From a virus, in the UHGV virus genome UHGV-1804406: a stretch of DNA of 12,891 nucleotides. The stretch is one strand, 5' to 3'. Within the stretch, counting starts at the first letter, position 1. Each line of letters begins with the position of its first letter. The notes below the pieces were generated by a model. The model was not told where the DNA came from and ran no database searches. It was given only the letters and a program-made list of their open reading frames with translations. Below are positions 1 through 8,297 of this stretch, piece by piece. The position numbers were made by a program, and so were the translations under genes.

Positions 1-2615
1 TTTTCCTGTATATCTTTCGCCTGCTGCTCCAGCTCGTCGGCATGGTTTTTGATTTCGTCAGCCATGCCAGCAATTTTTTCATTGCTGTCCACTGCGCTCT
101 CAATCAGATCTTTAAACGTAGCGGAGTCTTTGATCTCCTCCAGGATCACATCGGTGATATCGGAAACATCGATGCTGGCCTGACCTCGCACCCAGTCGGT
201 ATACCCGGACTCGTTTCCCGTTCTGTCGACCAGTTGCGCGCGATACCAGAAAATCTGCCCTGCCTTAAGACCCATCTGCTGATATTTGCGCTGCGGATAA
301 GGCACATCGGCCAGCAGCATGGCATCGTCTTCAGTACCGGTCAGGCTGTACTGAATTTCCGTCTTCAGCGTGTCGTCGGTATTCGCCTGGAATCCCCAGT
401 TCAGCTCGATACCGAACACCACGTTTTCAGAGGCGATAAAGCCAACCGGCTTCGGTGGATTGCCCACTTTACCCGTCAGCGTTTTCTCTTCTGAATAGCC
501 CCATCCGGATGAAATTTCTGCGGCATTGATTGCGCGCACCCGCACCAGGTAACGCCCGGCATAAATCCCCGGGACGTCGAATGACGTGGTGGAGGTGCGC
601 GGCACGTTAACCCAGTTCCCGTCGTTGCGGCGCCATTGCGCTTCATAGGCGATAGCGTTCTGCGCCTGGTCCCAGCTCACGCGCATTGTTTCGACGCTGA
701 TATTTTGCTGAACCACGGAAAACGAGCTGATCACGATATTCGCAGGCGGCGACTGGTTGCCCGGCGGGATCACGCTCACCGGCCGTTGGTCAATGATGGC
801 TCCGGTATCGATACGGGCATATTTATCCGGGTCGTGCCATGCGCCGGTAATCGAGAAAGTGCCATCATTGTTATCGGAAACGCTGACAACACGATACTGC
901 TGCGCGTAAAGCTCGTCAGATTCAACCACCCAAACAGCTTCGGCCTGTGGCGTCTCACTGTATGCCGTGGTGACTGTGACTGATTCCCCGTTCACGGCCT
1001 GAATGGTCCTGCTCTGCGACGCTCCGGAAGGCAGGTTGAGAATAAGGCGATCACCTGGTGCTGCATCAGCTACGCGGTCAAGTTTGATAACGCGACCGTT
1101 AACGGCGCTGATGCGGCCGCCCATAACCTTTCCGGAAAGCAGCTCGTCTGCCACGGCGATGATGTAGCCCGGCTGCGGAATGTTTCCGTCCAGCCCGACA
1201 TCAAACGAAACAACGCGATCCTTGTTATTGGTGAGAATACCCCAGCGCCCCTTTCGGTTCGCCTCTGACTGCCTGGTGCAGCCGATGGCTGTCATTTCCA
1301 GCTGATTGAAGCCGTACCGCGCCACCAGCGCCTGCTCAAATACCGGCTCCATCGCGTCGGCATAAGCGTTACCCGGGTCTGACCATGAAACCAGCGCTGT
1401 GGTGTAGCGGCTTTTCGTGGTGCTGCTCGAATAGGTGAAGCGACCGCCAACAACGTTAGCGCGCGTATAGCTGTAATCAACATCGCGCGGCATGTCAGCC
1501 AGGGCCACAATCTGATCCCCGCCCCAGTAGGTCATGCCACGGAAGATAGCGGCAAAATCACGCAGGACTGTGTAGGCGTCGTTCCGGTCCTGAATGTACA
1601 CGTTGCAGGTATAGCGTGGTTCTGTACCGTTGCCCCCTTTGCCGTCTGGTACCATCTGATCACAATACTGAGCAACCTGATAAAGCGTCCATTTATCAAT
1701 ATTCGCAGCGGTCAAACGGTGCCCAAGGCCGAACCGGTCAGAAACAACCAGGTCGTAAAAAATCCACGCAGGGTTATCCGTCCATGCCCACTTAAACGCA
1801 CCGGTCCATGTACCGCTATAAGTGCGGGTTTCAGGGTCGTAGGTATCTGGAACGCGGATAACGCGGCCGCGCGGTTCGCATGAAATTTGAGGAATAGAGC
1901 CGTTGAACTGGCTTGAGTCGAATTCGACGTAGAGCAGCGCGGTGTTCGGGTAGCGCAGTTTGGCGTCAATCACCTCGGTGAAGCTCTGCAGCATCATCGT
2001 GTCGCCGATCTTCGCGCTGTTGGCGTCAGAGGTAATCTTACGCAGACGTATTGTCCATGTGCTGCCAGCCTGCGGTAAATCGATACGGTGGCTGCGCTCA
2101 TAACCAGACGTCGTTTTGCCGGTCACGCTGGTATTGAGTACCGTCTGCCATGTGCCGCCGTCAGTCTGCAGGTCAATCGCATAATTGACCGAGTAACCCA
2201 CCAGATCGCCGTCGTCTTCCTGTTTGAAAAGCGAGGGCCATTTAAGACGCAGGCGAACTGCTGAAAGCTGCGTATTGGTAAACGTGCGCGTCCAGGCTGT
2301 GGCACTTGATACCTCAGTTCCTACGCTGATCTCGTTTTCGGTACCGGGAATACCCTGAATATATTTTTGCGCCTGCGTTCCCGCGCGAAACTCCCACGTT
2401 ACCCCGCTGAAGTTTTGGGAGCCGTCAGCATTCTCCAGCGCTGTTCCGTCCAGGTAGATATCTTTGCCGGTGAGCTGTCCAGCAAACTCCCCTTCCCCAA
2501 GCGCAACGAGGATTTTTGCCTTCGCTACAGATTGCAGATCATCAGGCTGTTCGGTAGGGGTTCGGGAACTTGAGCTGCCGCCCTTGCGGCCTTTTAACAC
2601 TTTATCTGTAGCCAT
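1..2615 (-). CDS. J: Tail tip / host specificity protein J (central tail fibre), N-terminal ~871 codons; C-terminus lies beyond the window start
   Basis: Open minus-strand frame from ATG at 2615..2613 to the window edge (codons end at position 3); not in the ORF track because it runs off the window. Translation begins MATDKVLKGRKGGSSSSRTPTEQ and contains blocks such as YPNTALL..EFDSSQF and QYCDQMVPDGKGG..TEPRYTCNVY that match my recollection of lambda gpJ. It is in the expected position after I. Weak SD; in-frame stop 2651..2649 upstream rules out a longer N-terminus. Confidence 0.9.
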   Translation of the reverse strand, partial: MATDKVLKGRKGGSSSSRTPTEQPDDLQSVAKAKILVALGEGEFAGQLTGKDIYLDGTALENADGSQNFSGVTWEFRAGTQAQKYIQGIPGTENEISVGTEVSSATAWTRTFTNTQLSAVRLRLKWPSLFKQEDDGDLVGYSVNYAIDLQTDGGTWQTVLNTSVTGKTTSGYERSHRIDLPQAGSTWTIRLRKITSDANSAKIGDTMMLQSFTEVIDAKLRYPNTALLYVEFDSSQFNGSIPQISCEPRGRVIRVPDTYDPETRTYSGTWTGAFKWAWTDNPAWIFYDLVVSDRFGLGHRLTAANIDKWTLYQVAQYCDQMVPDGKGGNGTEPRYTCNVYIQDRNDAYTVLRDFAAIFRGMTYWGGDQIVALADMPRDVDYSYTRANVVGGRFTYSSSTTKSRYTTALVSWSDPGNAYADAMEPVFEQALVARYGFNQLEMTAIGCTRQSEANRKGRWGILTNNKDRVVSFDVGLDGNIPQPGYIIAVADELLSGKVMGGRISAVNGRVIKLDRVADAAPGDRLILNLPSGASQSRTIQAVNGESVTVTTAYSETPQAEAVWVVESDELYAQQYRVVSVSDNNDGTFSITGAWHDPDKYARIDTGAIIDQRPVSVIPPGNQSPPANIVISSFSVVQQNISVETMRVSWDQAQNAIAYEAQWRRNDGNWVNVPRTSTTSFDVPGIYAGRYLVRVRAINAAEISSGWGYSEEKTLTGKVGNPPKPVGFIASENVVFGIELNWGFQANTDDTLKTEIQYSLTGTEDDAMLLADVPYPQRKYQQMGLKAGQIFWYRAQLVDRTGNESGYTDWVRGQASIDVSDITDVILEEIKDSATFKDLIESAVDSNEKIAGMADEIKNHADELEQQAKDIQE

Positions 2616-2626
2616 ATTGCGCCCAT

Positions 2627-2649
2627 AAAAAAGCCACCCAAAGGTGGCT
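2627..2649 (-). terminator. Intrinsic-terminator-like hairpin on the minus strand, 11 nt upstream of the J start codon
   Basis: Plus strand reads AAAAAA-GCCACC-CAAA-GGTGGCT; on the minus-strand RNA this is AGCCACC-UUUG-GGUGGCU followed by a U tract of 5-6. Seven-bp stem 2632-2638/2643-2649. No T run follows on the plus strand, so it is unidirectional. Confidence 0.5.
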
Positions 2650-2780
2650 ACTGTCTGAATATCAGGATGTTACAAATCTAAACACCTGGTTATGTTGTGG
2701 ATTCAGCCCGCCAGCGGTGGGACGCTGGTGAACTCATAACAGGTGGAATGGCTGATTACCTCTGGAAAAAGGAGAAGTAA

Positions 2781-3041
2781 ATGGGTTCGATGTTAGAACT
2801 GGAAAAAGAAGTGGCAGAGCTTAAACAAAAGCTGCTTACGCATGAAATTGCAACTGGCCTGATTCTATCGGACATTGTGAAATTACTGGACATTGCCCGG
2901 CCAGGCGCACTCGATGCTCTGACTAAAAACTATCAGGCAGGGCAAGCAAAAATCCCAGAATCAGCTGCACGTAATGATCCGCACACAATTGATGCGTTCA
3001 CGCGCATCCTTAAAGTTTTAGAGGTGGCATCAAAGAAATAA
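2781..3041 (+). CDS. Hypothetical small protein (86 aa) with predicted N-terminal coiled-coil; the only plus-strand gene candidate, inside the I-J insert
   Basis: ATG at 2781 preceded by AAGGAG with a 6-nt spacer (aaaaAGGAGaagtaaATG). 86 codons, MGSMLELEKEVAELKQKLL... The segment looks AT-richer than the flanking tail genes by eye. No minus-strand ORF of any length covers it (stops in all three minus frames between 2650 and 3010). Function unknown. Confidence 0.55.
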   Translation: MGSMLELEKEVAELKQKLLTHEIATGLILSDIVKLLDIARPGALDALTKNYQAGQAKIPESAARNDPHTIDAFTRILKVLEVASKK

Positions 3042-3327
3042 TTAAATCGAGCTTTTCATTGAATATTTCTTCATGAGTTTTAGCGGCCTCATTCTGGGCC
3101 GCTGTTACCGTTCCACCGAAAACCCCTGCATCACCCTGCGAAATCTTTCCCTCCTTTACTCGCAAACTCCAGCCATTACCGGTGATGGTCGAATGAATAG
3201 CGCCACCTGGCCGTAGTGCGTTCTGAATGGCGGAATTGACGATTGCCGGGTTATGCAGCTCTGCTATCTCCACCTGCAGGCTCGCGATGGTTGCCTCAAG
3301 CATGCTCATGCGCTCTTCTAAAGTCAT
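3010..3327 (-). CDS. Hypothetical small protein (105 aa), N-terminal Leu/Glu-rich helix followed by a Gly-rich segment; lies between I and J in the late operon
   Basis: ATG at 3327..3325 preceded by AGGAGA (caggagaaaactATG), 37 nt downstream of the I stop. Translation MTLEERMSMLEATIASLQVEIAELHNPAIVNSAIQNALRPGGAIHSTITGNGWSLRVKEGK...LKL. The track's longer 184-aa form (to 3564) would overlap I out of frame and lacks an SD. Its 3' end overlaps the plus ORF convergently over 3010..3041. Confidence 0.5.
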   Translation of the reverse strand: MTLEERMSMLEATIASLQVEIAELHNPAIVNSAIQNALRPGGAIHSTITGNGWSLRVKEGKISQGDAGVFGGTVTAAQNEAAKTHEEIFNEKLDLIISLMPPLKL

Positions 3328-3364
3328 AGTTTTCTCCTGCCTATCAGCTAATAAGTTAATTAAT

Positions 3365-3955
3365 TTACTGTTGATCTTCGACATAAATCCCGGCAGAAAT
3401 AATCGCACCGCCGATTTGCCGACGACCATAAAGAAGCGGTACCGGATAGCCCTGCGCGGCGGTGTTGGTGACTCCACCGAACGCGTATGAGGCGCGGTTA
3501 TCTGAACTCTGTTTGCTGGCCAGCCCCGCTGGTTGAGGGGAAAGCATCTGAACAACCCCGCCAATCATCATTGCGGCACCGAATTTGTATAAGAATGGTG
3601 ATGCCGCAGCCCAGGGTGTGAAATTAAGCACCGCCCCAACGGCAACCAGAACTGCACCAAGTATTGTCTGGAGTAATCCGGCCTTTTTGCTCCCGATAAT
3701 CACCGGGACAATGCGAATGACATCGCCGGTGACCGGGTAACCCAGGTCATCAACACCAATATTCTTTTTCCCTTTGAATACTGAATAAGTGAGACCACGG
3801 CGTTGGCTGGAAATCATAAACTGCTCAAAGCCCGGTATAGTCTTTGCCAGCGCAACACTCGCTTCGTTCACGCGGGAAATCAGGCGATGGTGAACTTTAC
3901 CGAATGTTTTCCCGAGCACGCCGCCAAGCTCAATGCGGGTCATTACTTCCTGCAT
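3365..3955 (-). CDS. I: Tail assembly protein I
   Basis: 196-aa ORF in the lambda I position, directly after K. SD AGGTG upstream of ATG 3955. Start overlaps the K stop (TAA 3945..3943) by 13 nt; an alternative in-frame ATG at 3943 is possible. Confidence 0.8.
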   Translation of the reverse strand: MQEVMTRIELGGVLGKTFGKVHHRLISRVNEASVALAKTIPGFEQFMISSQRRGLTYSVFKGKKNIGVDDLGYPVTGDVIRIVPVIIGSKKAGLLQTILGAVLVAVGAVLNFTPWAAASPFLYKFGAAMMIGGVVQMLSPQPAGLASKQSSDNRASYAFGGVTNTAAQGYPVPLLYGRRQIGGAIISAGIYVEDQQ

Positions 3956-4674
3956 GTTTCACCTGCCATTACATCTTTATAGCGAACGATCTTCATTGTG
4001 CGCTCCTGCCAGTATCCGCCATAAGGAACACGTTGACTCAGATGCCCGTAAAGATGGTGCAGCAGCATGTTACCCTCCAGTAAAATCCCGGCATGATTCC
4101 ACTTATCGGCCTGCACCTGCATGATGACGAGGTCCCCTTCCTGAGGCGGACCATCAAACTCCCTGAATCCGCACTCGTACCAGCACTCCTGATAGAAATT
4201 GTCCGGGTAGTCGTTTTCCCACCAGGGATAATCCACCCGGTAATCGTGGAGCTCGATACAGTGGGTCTGCCGGAAATAGCTCATTACCAGACCCCAGCAA
4301 TCGAAGTGGCCAAGCACGAACGGACGCTCCAGCAATGGCAGCTCCCCGCGTGGCTGAATGGTACGTAAATCCCCCTCTGGCCAGCTCACAATATGCCAGG
4401 GCAGCAGCGTTGCATCACACTGCGCCTTATCCAGCTCGCTGGCCTGCGTCGTCGCATCAGGATGGCTGTGAACAATGGCCACCACCGTCCCCCAGTCTTC
4501 TGCCGCTGCGTAATCTTCGGGGGACAGGTGAAAATGTTCAGTCGGCTCTGCTGCGAGATTACGACAGGGAAAATAGCGCTCAACCCGGCTTTTCTGTGCC
4601 ACCACGCCGCAGCACTCTCGCGGATATTCCGCTGCAGCGTGTGCCATGATGGCATCAATGGTTTTCTGGCGCAT
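3943..4674 (-). CDS. K: Tail assembly protein K, with MPN/JAMM-type motif and NlpC/P60-like Cys/His region
   Basis: Start chosen at ATG 4674 (MRQKTIDAIMAHAAAEYPRECCGVV) because it has a strong SD (cAGGAGctgat) and sits 1 nt after the L stop (TGA 4678..4676); the track's upstream start 4713 lies inside L. Contains the JAMM-like HSHPD...S..D motif and conserved Cys/His further on, as in lambda gpK. Confidence 0.85.
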   Translation of the reverse strand: MRQKTIDAIMAHAAAEYPRECCGVVAQKSRVERYFPCRNLAAEPTEHFHLSPEDYAAAEDWGTVVAIVHSHPDATTQASELDKAQCDATLLPWHIVSWPEGDLRTIQPRGELPLLERPFVLGHFDCWGLVMSYFRQTHCIELHDYRVDYPWWENDYPDNFYQECWYECGFREFDGPPQEGDLVIMQVQADKWNHAGILLEGNMLLHHLYGHLSQRVPYGGYWQERTMKIVRYKDVMAGETCRK

Positions 4675-4675
4675 A

Positions 4676-5431
4676 TCAGCTCCTGATAAGAGATGTACCG
4701 GGGAAACCGCCAAACGGCAGCTCGTTGCTGTCTCCGTGCCGGAGCTTGCAGGCCGTCAGCGTGCCGTTGCAGACATCCAGCGATGGATCGTCAACCGGAT
4801 TATTGTTTTTGTCGAAATAGCGCGTTCCGGCATAGTCGCAGCCGTCGCCGGTCCGGTACTTGTTCCGGATGCACCAGCTGCATAACGAATGCAGCTGCCG
4901 CGTGGGTATCATCTGGCCCTGTAAATCCATCGGACTGGAAAGCGTAAATTCAACAGATTCATCCGTCTCGGTGCTTCTGGCATCGATATAAAAGACCTTC
5001 AGCTTTTCCTGTGACGGGTCTGCAGTGGGATTGCCCTGCGGAAAATTTCTGGCGTCCAGATACTGTGCCAGCGTGTCGTGGATACTCACTTTCGCCTGCA
5101 GCAGATCGTCATACGCCAGACAGAGCGCTGAGATCGAGCTGTCCAGGTTCGCCACACTCAGTTTTGGCTGTGGACTGGTACCGTCCGTAGTCGCTTCAAT
5201 ACCCTCAACCTGACACGGCCAGGCTTTATACTCCTCCCCCTGCCACCAGATGGACTTCGCCGGAAGTTTATTCTCATCCCCGCCTGCAGCCTCAATCTCT
5301 TCCGGGGTATGCGCGATATTATGTGCGTGGAAGCGGAGTACATCTGACATACCGAACGCTGTGCCATCGACAGAAAAAAGCCGGACTTCATTGCCCGGCT
5401 CGAGTTTTTGATAATCAGCATTAAGACTCAT
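4676..5431 (-). CDS. L: Minor tail protein L (Cys-rich, lambda gpL-like)
   Basis: 251-aa ORF. Its ATG (5431..5429) overlaps the M stop (5430..5428) in an ATGA arrangement, indicating translational coupling. C-terminal Cys cluster (CSWC...C...C...C) as in lambda gpL, which binds an Fe-S cluster. Confidence 0.85.
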   Translation of the reverse strand: MSLNADYQKLEPGNEVRLFSVDGTAFGMSDVLRFHAHNIAHTPEEIEAAGGDENKLPAKSIWWQGEEYKAWPCQVEGIEATTDGTSPQPKLSVANLDSSISALCLAYDDLLQAKVSIHDTLAQYLDARNFPQGNPTADPSQEKLKVFYIDARSTETDESVEFTLSSPMDLQGQMIPTRQLHSLCSWCIRNKYRTGDGCDYAGTRYFDKNNNPVDDPSLDVCNGTLTACKLRHGDSNELPFGGFPGTSLIRS

Positions 5432-5780: not shown

Positions 5781-8297
5781 TTACCTGCGATTGTTCGCAT
5801 TCCAGATAAGCCCACCGGGCTGGATTGCCCTGGCGATACCATCGTTGACAGATTTGTTAATCACCTGCTGATACGCCTTACCCAGCCTGTCTCCGTCATT
5901 TTGCTGCTGTGCGCCACCGGAGGCATTCTCGACGGTCACAGGCGCGTACACGCTCACCCCGAAAGGTGCTGCAGCGGGACCTGTGCCACTGCCCCCGACA
6001 AGCCCTCCTGTGGCGTACCCTTTCATCATCCGGTAAAGGTTGCCGACGCCGATCCGACTGGTAGCCTCTTTGGTGAAAACAAATTCGCCACGGTGAACGA
6101 CACCTGCGGGTTCATATTTCCCACCCGAACCGGTGAATCCCCCGCTGGCAAACCCCAGCGCCGTGGAGGCTGAATCTACCAGTCCGGTCATTGCCTGCTT
6201 CAGCAGAATTTGTGTCAGCATGGAGAGCGTGGAGCGGGTAAAGTCAGCCCAGTCAGCCTTTCCGCGTGTCAGCATGTCTGCCATATTCTGCCCGATGCCA
6301 TCAAACGTACTGGTGGCAACCGACTTCATCTGGCCATAAGCATCTGAAGCGGAATCAACATAATCTGCCCATGCGGATTTGGCCCCGGATTGCCAGTCGT
6401 CCCGCAGCTTATCCTGCTCGGCGTAATACGCCTGCAGCGCCTGCAGCTCATTCTGATAACCAGCGTCGTTCTCCGAACCGCCACCATTTTTCCAGCCCTG
6501 AAGAAGCTGGTCCTCCTCATTGCGGCGTTGTGCTGCACGACTGCTCATACCAGCACTTTCCGCAAGGGCTCGGGTTTTCTCGCCGATCTGCGTGACGTAT
6601 TTTTGGGACGTATCCTGCAGGCGGTTAAGCCGCTCCTGCGCCACTATCTGATCGCCAAGCTTCGCATTCAGCTCCGCACGGGAAAGCACCTCACTTTTAC
6701 TGGCCAGCAGGGATTTTTCCTCAGCAGAAAGCGTTCGGGTCTTCGCGGCCTCTTCCAGAACCGTAAAGCGGGACTGCTGACGCCACAGCTCCTGACGCTG
6801 CTGGCTGATGGTGTCATTGATGCTCTTATGCTCCTGCAGGGTGCGCAGCTGTGTCTGTAGCTCCAGCGTCTGGGCACTGGCCGTATCGGTGGCACGGGCA
6901 CCTGCGGGGGTTCTGATTGCCGGGGTCTTCTTCGGCTTTTTAAGGGTGTCTTCGTACTCTTTTTTCGCGGCAGCCAGGTTGATGTTGTAGTCAGCCTGGA
7001 GGATCCGCCCCTCTTTCAGCGCCTTGTTGAGCTCGCTCTGCCTGGCCGTGTATTTCTCCAGTGCCGTCTGCGTTTTGGCATAGTTTGCCTGTGCCTGCGC
7101 AGCATACTTCTGGCGATCCGATTCCGCAGCCGCTTCGCGCGATGCATTCTCTTCGTTCGCCCTGGCAATTCCCGCCTGCTGCTGCGCCATATCCAGCGCA
7201 AGCCTGGCCGTTTCGCGGTCATTCCAGAATCGGGCGCGAGCCTCATCATTGACATATCGGTCACCTTTACGCAGGTTCCAGATTTCATCAGCTTTTTTGA
7301 ACGCGGCTTCGGCTTTTGCCACCATCTCCTGCGCGGTGTCAGGTCGGCCAATATCGAGGGCTGCATCCCACATCGACTTGAAGGCGCGCTTCAGGGAGTC
7401 CGCTGAAGACTCTATCGTCCCCATATTGTCGCGGATGGCTTTGGTCTGATCGTTGAATCCGGCTGTAGCCGCCTCGTTAGCCGCCTGCAGTGCGCCAGCC
7501 TCATCACCGGCACGCTGCAGCTGCGCCACATGGGCAATCTGTTCTGCGGTAACGTTATGGAACTGCTGGGCCATCGCGATCAGGCCCGATGTCGGGTCAG
7601 TTGCGAGCTTGCCGTAGGCTGCAGCGACTTTCTCCACCGGCACGCCGGAGGCATCAGTAAACCGCGCCACCGCCTGGCTCATTTCATCAAAGCGCGAGCC
7701 AGTACGCACACCTGCATTGATAAGCTCGGTCAGGGCTTCACTGGTCTGGTTGAACGTTAGCCCCGCTGCCTGTCCGTTCCGCGCCAGTGCCAGCATGCGG
7801 TCAGCTGTCAGTCCGGCTGTGTTCCCCGACAGTACCAGCGTTTTGTTGAAATCAGACAGAGTGGAAGAGCCCTGGTACCAGGCATAGAACAACGCGCCCG
7901 TTGCAACGGACAATGCACCAATGCCGACCATCAACGGGGAAATCGTCCCCAGTAACGCCCGGAATGTCGGAATGATCCCGCCAAAGGAGTCCTTAACCTG
8001 ACCGCCCTGCTGAAGCAGAATCAGCCAGGGGTTCTGCCCACCCGCCAGCTGCGTAGCCACGTCAGTAAACTGCGCCGGGAGCATACGCATCGCTGCGTTA
8101 TACTGACCCACTGAAATACCGGCCTTACGCGCGGCGTTCTCCTGGCGGCTAAAGGACTGCTGGATCCGTAGCGCTTCGTCGTTCGCCGCGCTGCCAGTCT
8201 GCTTTAATTCTTTTTTGACGTAGTTAAGCTGCTCGTTAAATTTCGTCGAGTTAACGTCAAGGTTAACGACCAGATCACCCACTGCCGTCTGGGCCAT
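5781..8297 (-). CDS. H: Tail tape measure protein H
   Basis: 838-aa ORF with SD AGGAGG. Long colinear blocks match recalled lambda gpH (GISVGQYNAAMRMLPAQFTDVATQLAGGQNPWLILLQQGGQVKDSFGG; C-terminal GGKYEPAGVVHRGEFVFTKEATSRIGVGNLYRMMKGYATGG). Central region is Ala/Gln/Glu-rich and helical. Start overlaps the T-frame 3' end by 23 nt. Confidence 0.95.
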   Translation of the reverse strand: MAQTAVGDLVVNLDVNSTKFNEQLNYVKKELKQTGSAANDEALRIQQSFSRQENAARKAGISVGQYNAAMRMLPAQFTDVATQLAGGQNPWLILLQQGGQVKDSFGGIIPTFRALLGTISPLMVGIGALSVATGALFYAWYQGSSTLSDFNKTLVLSGNTAGLTADRMLALARNGQAAGLTFNQTSEALTELINAGVRTGSRFDEMSQAVARFTDASGVPVEKVAAAYGKLATDPTSGLIAMAQQFHNVTAEQIAHVAQLQRAGDEAGALQAANEAATAGFNDQTKAIRDNMGTIESSADSLKRAFKSMWDAALDIGRPDTAQEMVAKAEAAFKKADEIWNLRKGDRYVNDEARARFWNDRETARLALDMAQQQAGIARANEENASREAAAESDRQKYAAQAQANYAKTQTALEKYTARQSELNKALKEGRILQADYNINLAAAKKEYEDTLKKPKKTPAIRTPAGARATDTASAQTLELQTQLRTLQEHKSINDTISQQRQELWRQQSRFTVLEEAAKTRTLSAEEKSLLASKSEVLSRAELNAKLGDQIVAQERLNRLQDTSQKYVTQIGEKTRALAESAGMSSRAAQRRNEEDQLLQGWKNGGGSENDAGYQNELQALQAYYAEQDKLRDDWQSGAKSAWADYVDSASDAYGQMKSVATSTFDGIGQNMADMLTRGKADWADFTRSTLSMLTQILLKQAMTGLVDSASTALGFASGGFTGSGGKYEPAGVVHRGEFVFTKEATSRIGVGNLYRMMKGYATGGLVGGSGTGPAAAPFGVSVYAPVTVENASGGAQQQNDGDRLGKAYQQVINKSVNDGIARAIQPGGLIWNANNRR

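Follow-up and report, generated by a model that had tools for sequence, protein, structure and literature searches.

Positions 2650-3364 of the window (the whole 12,891-nt stretch of DNA that was analysed) are probably a moron cassette of two genes that is horizontally mobile and has inserted between I and J, both tail genes, in a lambdoid prophage of the N15/mEp237 type. The cassette carries a small gene oriented against the late operon, a convergent late-strand partner, and a conserved upstream element composed of a promoter-like half and a folded RNA leader. As the arrangement itself (reverse moron or noncontiguous operon) is already known, the new part of the finding is the shared upstream element: the combination of a conserved putative promoter and a structured leader common to many unrelated cargo genes appears undescribed in searchable sources. 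The features discussed below are as follows.

1..2615, minus strand: 5' part of J (tail-tip/host-specificity gene; its product is named host specificity protein J or central tail fiber in records of homologues), start codon at 2615-2613, truncated by the left end of the window
2627..2649, minus strand: intrinsic terminator upstream of J, stem 2632-2638/2643-2649 (7 pairs, 5 of them G-C, terminator scan), T-run 2627-2632
2650..2702, plus strand: promoter-like block conserved in all contexts, with the -35-like TTACAA (2670-2675), a 15-nt spacer, and the -10 TATGTT (2691-2696)
2703..2780, plus strand: predicted structured 5' leader of the reverse gene, with helices Pb, Pc, and Pd and the Shine-Dalgarno sequence AGGAG (2770-2774)
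2703-2708 with 2750-2755, plus strand: helix Pb, invariant GGCUGA segment
2709-2716 with 2723-2730, plus strand: helix Pc, with the nearly invariant loop GTGGGA, whose A is missing or changed in a few versions
2740-2746 with 2759-2764, plus strand: helix Pd, just ahead of the ribosome-binding site
2781..3041, plus strand: 86-aa reverse gene with an ATG start, encoding a predicted small soluble three-helix protein (WP_008323354.1; phrog_23209; 13 homologue clusters)
3010..3327, minus strand: 105-aa late-strand partner gene (phrog_22477), convergent with the 86-aa gene (32-nt overlap of the 3' ends), with an AGGAG ribosome-binding site
3082..3103, no strand assigned: G+C-rich palindromic hairpin AGCGGCC-N8-GGCCGCT, 41-62 nt past the stop of the reverse gene and inside the forward ORF, without a U-tract on either strand
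3328..3364, minus strand: spacer between the stop of I and the forward ORF, with the conserved ribosome-binding block AGGCAGGAGA, at which the cassette has its far boundary
3365..3955, minus strand: I (tail assembly), the final resident late gene ahead of the cassette, by gene order and annotation
5781-8297, minus strand: H, a late-operon gene

The cassette in the I–J interval

The minus strand of the window reads as a lambdoid late operon, in which the head genes are followed by V, G, T, H, M, L, K, and I, and then by J; judging from lambdoid biology, it would depend on Q. The closest phages (mEp237, HK225, and N15) are 90-94% identical to the window over 93-94% coverage, and the portion that they leave uncovered is the I-J interval. 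In mEp237, the closest annotated phage (94% coverage, 93.8% identity), I is followed by 52 nt, including a terminator hairpin, and then by J, whereas the window carries about 700 nt extra. All 15 genes of mEp237 lie on the late strand, which fits the original prediction that the 86-aa gene is the only plus-strand gene of the window.

Morons are said to be characterized by extra DNA, a deviant composition, their own promoter, their own factor-independent terminator, and expression in the prophage. In this sense, that of Juhala et al. 2000, the cassette is extra DNA lying between genes that are adjacent in the related mEp237, and its base composition (46.6% GC) is distinct from that of the flanking genes (52.5-57.9% for I, K-L-M, H, and J; 54.6% for the whole window). 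By gene order and strand, the reverse gene interrupts the late operon, as in a noncontiguous operon. The cassette is mobile: the 86-aa/105-aa pair is found between I and J beside differing J and tape-measure genes, between M and L, and, in Citrobacter, after the tape-measure gene, the 105-aa gene accompanying the 86-aa gene in every one of these contexts.

The records of HK97, HK225, and ES18 annotate the equivalent of the hairpin at 2627-2649 as a terminator, and a minus-strand terminator adjoins the upstream element in 57 of 80 versions. This hairpin lies where it was originally placed. It is not an end point of late transcription: the ATG of J lies only 12 nt past the T-run, and late RNA polymerase must read through the terminator. 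A pre-J terminator is also present in mEp237 (locus L200, about 2616-2667), which lacks the cassette, so that an essential tail gene has an intrinsic terminator ahead of it even where no moron is present. On the other side, no canonical plus-strand terminator was found in the window within 200 nt of the stop of the 86-aa gene, and only 19 of 80 relatives have a plus-strand terminator. The hairpin at 3082-3103 may serve as a 3'-end or processing hairpin. It falls in the most conserved peptide of the forward ORF (TAAQNEAA), and its stem nucleotides are kept even where the peptide differs (e.g., relative L015).

The same tail-gene region of related prophages contains further accessory DNA. Locus L006 has a group II intron reverse transcriptase insert (RVT_1 + GIIM, 6030-7538), while loci L001 and L012 have, between K and I, a KilA-N domain gene together with another small ORF. 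The cassettes located between M and L (loci L013-L015, about 4566-5325) are followed by two Rap1a-domain genes on the same reverse strand; Rap1a is a type VI secretion immunity family.

The conserved upstream element

The region at about 2650-2780 is conserved in 91 distinct versions at at least five late-operon slots, and cassettes with saturated or unalignable coding sequences share 69-92% identity in it; a 19-mer taken from it matched more than 120 IMG/VR contigs. The original prediction did not extend to this conservation, nor to the conserved 105-aa partner. A small ORF lies at a fixed offset from the element in nearly all 91 versions. The complete cargo ORFs are mostly 58-104 aa long (with a lone outlier of 42 aa) and fall into 25 BLAST-unrelated clusters, few of which are connected by profile comparison. 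A single superfamily for all cargo genes is unsupported in profile-profile comparison, and the only recognizable cargo domains are DUF1883 and an aspartyl-protease-like domain.

In annotated phages, the gene after the element is always opposed to the late operon. Such genes include HK97 gp23, HK022 gp23, ES18 gp25 ('possible moron'), HK633_067, mEp213_072, SaltyDalty CDS0018, and two SPN3UB genes. The element itself carries no annotated feature in the examined records, except in SaltyDalty and CharmingMan, where it lies partly under a hypothetical-protein CDS. It is present in 54 of 5426 complete E. coli genomes, and among species-representative genomes it is confined to Enterobacterales, other matches of the 19-mer failing the covariance model. 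Several prophages have two to three leader-plus-small-ORF copies at separate tail-operon slots (e.g., SPN3UB, locus L144, with leader copies at 426-508 and 3516-3598; also L149, L181, and L194 from Enterobacter bugandensis). No link to the element was found for the Salmonella ST64B STMMW_20121 locus (Owen 2020).

The two halves of the element differ in the kind of constraint that they appear to be under. No covariation was seen in the 5' half (2650-2702), which points to a constraint at the DNA level. The hexamers TTACAA and TATGTT with their 15-nt spacer are located where the original prediction had put them as a weak sigma70-like promoter. The -10 part of this claim gains from the comparison: TAnnnT occupies the -10 position in 90 of the 91 versions, with variable middle bases, and this site is the top sigma-70 PWM site in 44 of the 91. 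The -35 element (TTR) and the 15-16-nt spacer, on the other hand, are poor across versions, and a consensus promoter scan of 2400-3600 returned no sigma-70 site. The putative promoter is weak by consensus, and the case for it comes from comparison of versions. The predicted transcription start (about 2701-2704) coincides with the base of helix Pb. Two other readings of this half were rejected: an upstream stem CAGG/CCTG showed no covariation, and a sigma-54 promoter did not agree with the spacing in the sequence.

The 3' half (2703-2780) is, on comparative grounds, a structured RNA read from the plus strand. In an alignment of 76 versions (A5), 93.3% of the cells are paired in the leader, versus at most 48.7% with slid partners. 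The covariation score is 0.132, versus at most 0.06 in the controls, and none of 500 shuffles reaches the observed score. Helix Pc is paired in 98.4% of the cells; one of its pairs changes on both sides (UA 57, CG 12, UG 7), and a second varies via wobble intermediates (UG 43, CG 17, UA 14). In Pd, both-sided changes occur at five of the six pairs. Pb is invariant and therefore receives no support from covariation; together with Pd, it would form a pseudoknot or alternative folds. Hairpin Pc alone was recovered when RNAalifold was run on the element with default settings. The covariance model R1 scores the window, which is part of its training alignment, at 81 bits, and recovers 19 independent full-length copies, 18 of which are followed by a small ORF. 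No Rfam family reached its gathering threshold; the best hit, rseX, scored 26.5 bits against 50 (E = 1) and lies on the opposite strand. These comparisons speak for a separate transcription and translation unit on the plus strand, and the leader most likely stabilizes the message or sets its translation.

Some details of the leader can be added. A translated leader peptide (MADYL...) was discarded on reading the alignments, as several versions have ATA in place of its ATG, neither its frame nor its stop is constant, and the Shine-Dalgarno spacing is too short. The corresponding short frame in the window, MADYLWKKEK, has a TAA that directly abuts the main ATG, and is not conserved. The 3' end of 16S rRNA reads GAUCACCUCC. 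The leader (window 2741-2775) contains a similar sequence, GAUUACCUCU, which makes up helix Pd by pairing with the upstream Shine-Dalgarno-like AGAGG/GGAGG. The Pc loop, GGGAUGG, and the Shine-Dalgarno sequence contain GGA motifs, reminiscent of CsrA sites.

Tentatively, the block of about 130 nt at 2650-2780 could be regarded as an undescribed portable expression platform. Its conserved promoter and compact, possibly pseudoknotted leader, with the nearly invariant hairpin loop GGUGGGA and the invariant GGCUGA of Pb, would drive a hypervariable collection of at least 25 BLAST-unrelated clusters of small reverse genes at at least five slots in enterobacterial lambdoid prophages, and the fold might act as a regulatory sensor (e.g., of a host factor, infection, or late transcription) that gates defence genes, each provided with a late-expressed antagonist. 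Backwards small genes in phage late operons are the home of recently found prophage defences and of their self-immunity partners (Tab, Tai). A searchable leader and promoter would be a handle on dozens of uncharacterized candidate defence or accessory genes in Enterobacterales, and the leader is a candidate structured RNA for the catalogue of families.

The reverse gene and its forward partner

The 86-aa ORF at 2781-3041, whose coordinates and ATG start were confirmed, has the good ribosome-binding site that had been claimed for it, AGGAG at 2770-2774 being placed 6 nt ahead of the ATG. The encoded protein corresponds to PGAP protein WP_008323354.1 and matches phrog_23209 (E 5.5e-59), a PHROG family of unknown function. 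Its homologues form 13 clusters with identities down to 43%, and it has only 11 representatives among 1.84 billion proteins. A tblastn search of phages returned no match and missed HK633_067, a homologue at about 30% identity. No match was obtained in Pfam or NCBIfam, PADLOC-DB 2023 HMMs hit neither the 86-aa nor the 105-aa protein at E up to 1, and a Foldseek search of PDB and BFVD with the AlphaFold2 model of the 86-aa protein (three helices, pLDDT 86.6) gave nothing under E 0.5.

As the plus strand of the window contains about 60 ORFs of at least 40 aa, several of them exceeding 86 aa, the length of this ORF alone is not beyond chance; it stands out from the others by its conservation and by purifying selection. 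Compared with a relative at 80% identity, the gene shows 39 synonymous and 25 nonsynonymous changes (dN/dS 0.09, with dS near saturation), and dN/dS is 0.08-0.2 within the HK633_067 subfamily. The motifs KQKLLTHE and ARNDPHTxDAF are kept across homologues, and the start and stop codons are retained in every context. Loss of coding conservation in relatives had been named in advance as an outcome that would speak against the original prediction; the homologues instead indicate purifying selection (dN/dS 0.09-0.2), and by this comparison the 86-aa ORF is a genuine gene.

The 105-aa partner matches phrog_22477, another function-unknown PHROG family, and has an alternative 124-aa start at 3384 according to PGAP. 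Its dN/dS is 0.36-0.40 and climbs toward 1 in mosaic pairs, so that the forward ORF is, to judge from these ratios, weakly constrained. The AlphaFold2 model (pLDDT 57) was too low in confidence for a fold search. Consensus scanning of 2400-3600 revealed no promoter of its own for the forward ORF, and in some relatives a minus-strand terminator is located about 12 nt upstream of its ribosome-binding site; both observations fit late-only expression. The AGGCAGGAGA ribosome-binding block is common to HK97, although the ORFs differ, and the block occurs in 19 of the 91 versions, 424-671 nt from the leader. This second conserved block of the cassette (window 3328-3350; about 2985-3010 in the HK97 locus L018) reads AGCYGARAGGCAGGAGA-N4-TATG on the minus strand and includes the forward ribosome-binding site.

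In locus L005 (Leclercia CP040889), the 86-aa protein is identical to that of the window, while the partner is 56% identical and has its N-terminal half replaced. This indicates recombination inside the cassette, and argues against tight co-specificity of the whole partner.

Functional roles can be proposed from the parallel with Tab/anti-Tab and Tai/Ati. For the 86-aa protein, the most likely role is that of an accessory factor made by the prophage and probably aimed at other phages, and the 105-aa protein would be its late-expressed antagonist; our best guess is such a pairing of a prophage-expressed factor with a late-expressed antagonist.

The proposed switch, its alternatives, and known systems

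On balance, the explanation that we favour as the more probable one is a moron cassette with a lysogen-expressed reverse gene, a folded leader, and silencing by late transcription. A weak sigma-70-type promoter belonging to the 86-aa gene (-10 at 2691-2696) would drive its transcription in the lysogen, opposite to the late operon. The mRNA would begin at about 2701-2704 with the folded leader, which has a stem at its 5' terminus, a hairpin with covariation, and another covarying helix before the ribosome-binding site; this leader would most likely stabilize the mRNA or set its translation. After induction, Q-modified RNA polymerase would read from I through the 105-aa gene, and then head-on over the reverse gene and its promoter, past the terminator at 2627-2649 and into J. 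The stretch of late transcript antisense to the plus ORF would be about 360 nt, as originally estimated, the 105-aa ORF ending at 3010. Collision and antisense RNA would damp the reverse gene, while the forward protein would be made simultaneously. Promoter activity, lysogen expression, silencing, and the functions of the proteins are what we infer; the earlier reading of a lysogen-expressed gene silenced in lytic growth is partly supported, through sequence comparison and known precedents. If the mechanism holds, the cassettes would be a tractable system for studying how head-on late transcription switches prophage genes off.

Several other explanations can be weighed against this one. The conserved block might represent an RNA of the minus strand, terminated at 2627-2649, whether as an sRNA or as a 3'-UTR element belonging to the forward moron or the late transcript; its conservation would then be unrelated to expression of the plus ORF. 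The minus strand indeed folds better than shuffled sequences (z -3.8, versus -1.3 for the plus strand), the terminator is adjacent to the element in 57/80 versions, and the layout weakly resembles rseX/MicA. The wobble pairs, however, favour the plus strand (100 G-U cells, versus 17 when the minus strand is read), one stem pair is compatible in 88 of the 91 versions when read on the plus strand, as against 40 of the 91 on the minus strand, and a start codon with a ribosome-binding site follows at a fixed offset in nearly all versions. Furthermore, a conserved minus-strand promoter is impossible inside the variable coding sequence, and the Rfam matches are not significant (E >=1). A minus-strand sRNA was rejected on the wobble-pair counts, and the reading as a whole is very unlikely. 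An unexpressed chance open frame is hardly credible at all: many longer antisense ORFs exist in the window and no promoter was found at the consensus threshold, but this explanation is refuted by the selection analysis (dN/dS 0.09-0.2, 39 synonymous versus 25 nonsynonymous changes), and the conserved motifs, the start and stop kept in all contexts, and the confident structure model also oppose it.

Two further alternatives accept the reverse gene as expressed and concern its role. It could act outside the lysogen, as an early anti-defence or takeover protein, or its transcription could mainly throttle J and the downstream tail genes via antisense RNA or collision. In being small, diverse, and quick to evolve, the cargo proteins resemble anti-defence proteins, and the cassettes are always inside late operons, often right before tail-tip genes; yet an orientation opposite to every lytic transcription unit leaves the gene without access to an early or late promoter, the strong purifying selection on the 86-aa protein argues against a purely RNA-level role, and characterized genes of like layout are lysogen-expressed. 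We consider this possibility improbable, albeit the least so of the alternatives. The pair might also be a toxin-antitoxin-like addiction module that stabilizes the cassette or the prophage, in place of a pair of defence and counter-defence genes; Tab/anti-Tab has been likened to an addiction module. Two small genes that are tightly linked, always co-inherited, and overlapping at their 3' ends would suit it, whereas no toxin-antitoxin family matches in Pfam or PADLOC, and the 86-aa gene and its partner do not share a transcript. A partner without its own promoter would be synthesized late only, which is unsuited to a continuously needed antitoxin, and an addiction module has only a slim chance of being the correct description.

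The preferred explanation, a lysogen-expressed reverse gene silenced by late transcription, has its nearest counterparts in two characterized systems. In the Mu-like Pseudomonas phage JBD26, tab encodes a protein of 83 aa, lies on the minus strand between terminase genes, has its own promoter, and is expressed in the prophage; atab, the late-strand gene immediately upstream, neutralizes Tab, which blocks tail assembly via the tape-measure protein (Patel et al. 2024, PMC10884400). According to the GenBank record, tab and atab converge with a 47-nt overlap. The window shares this layout, a small reverse gene (86 versus 83 aa) with a convergent late-strand partner (32-nt versus 47-nt overlap) in a late operon; it differs in its slot and host phage, and a conserved leader is not reported for Tab. 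The proteins are dissimilar (BLASTP E 1.9 or no alignment; hhalign probability 0.1%).

In the coliphage phi80, lambdoid like the phage of the window, taiEcA interrupts the Q-dependent late operon ('noncontiguous operon') and is lysogen-expressed, while the adjacent atiEcA, a small late-strand neighbour, counteracts it (He et al. 2024, PMC11364771). Q expression lowers TaiEcA, and the TaiEcA protein level is steady after mitomycin C induction (PMC11364771), which suggests that silencing may be modest. In contrast to the window pair, TaiEcA is a protein of 204 aa and tai/ati are head-to-head rather than convergent; BLASTP of the window proteins against TaiEcA/AtiEcA gave no alignment at E up to 100, and the conserved leader is absent upstream of phi80 tai. 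As no sequence is shared with Tab or Tai, the claim for the window is that it works like these systems, not that it is a member of them. Tha/Ith of S. aureus prophages is a third precedent for an antisense switch.

Lambda bor and lom had also been named as lysogen-expressed models. Like the window gene, bor is small, lysogen-expressed, and oriented against late transcription, and this half of the analogy holds; lom is co-oriented with the late genes and does not fit. The bor product is a lipoprotein, encoded near the right end of the genome, and bor is not known to have a partner gene or a shared leader.

The closest relatives in layout are the products labelled 'moron' and 'reverse moron' in the I-J slot of HK97 (gp22/gp23, AF069529) and HK022 (gp22/gp23, AF069308), in the Juhala et al. 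2000 records. As in the window, both phages have a pre-J terminator, an upstream block (about 69-75% identical to that of the window), a reverse ORF beginning at the same distance from J (also of 86 aa in HK97), a convergent forward ORF that overlaps the 3' end of the reverse ORF, and the conserved forward ribosome-binding block. Both coding sequences are nevertheless unrelated to those of the window (profile probability of 2% between the window family and the HK022 gp23 family), and HK97 and HK022 possess a plus-strand terminator after gene 23 that the window lacks. Literature searches on 'reverse moron', 'srb', and the element sequence yielded nothing relevant, and the meaning of 'srb' was not found in the searchable literature; 'srb protein' is the GenBank label of HK022 gp23 (locus L017, 2481-2702). 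Both HK97 gene 23 and HK022 gene 23 reside in standard laboratory phages.
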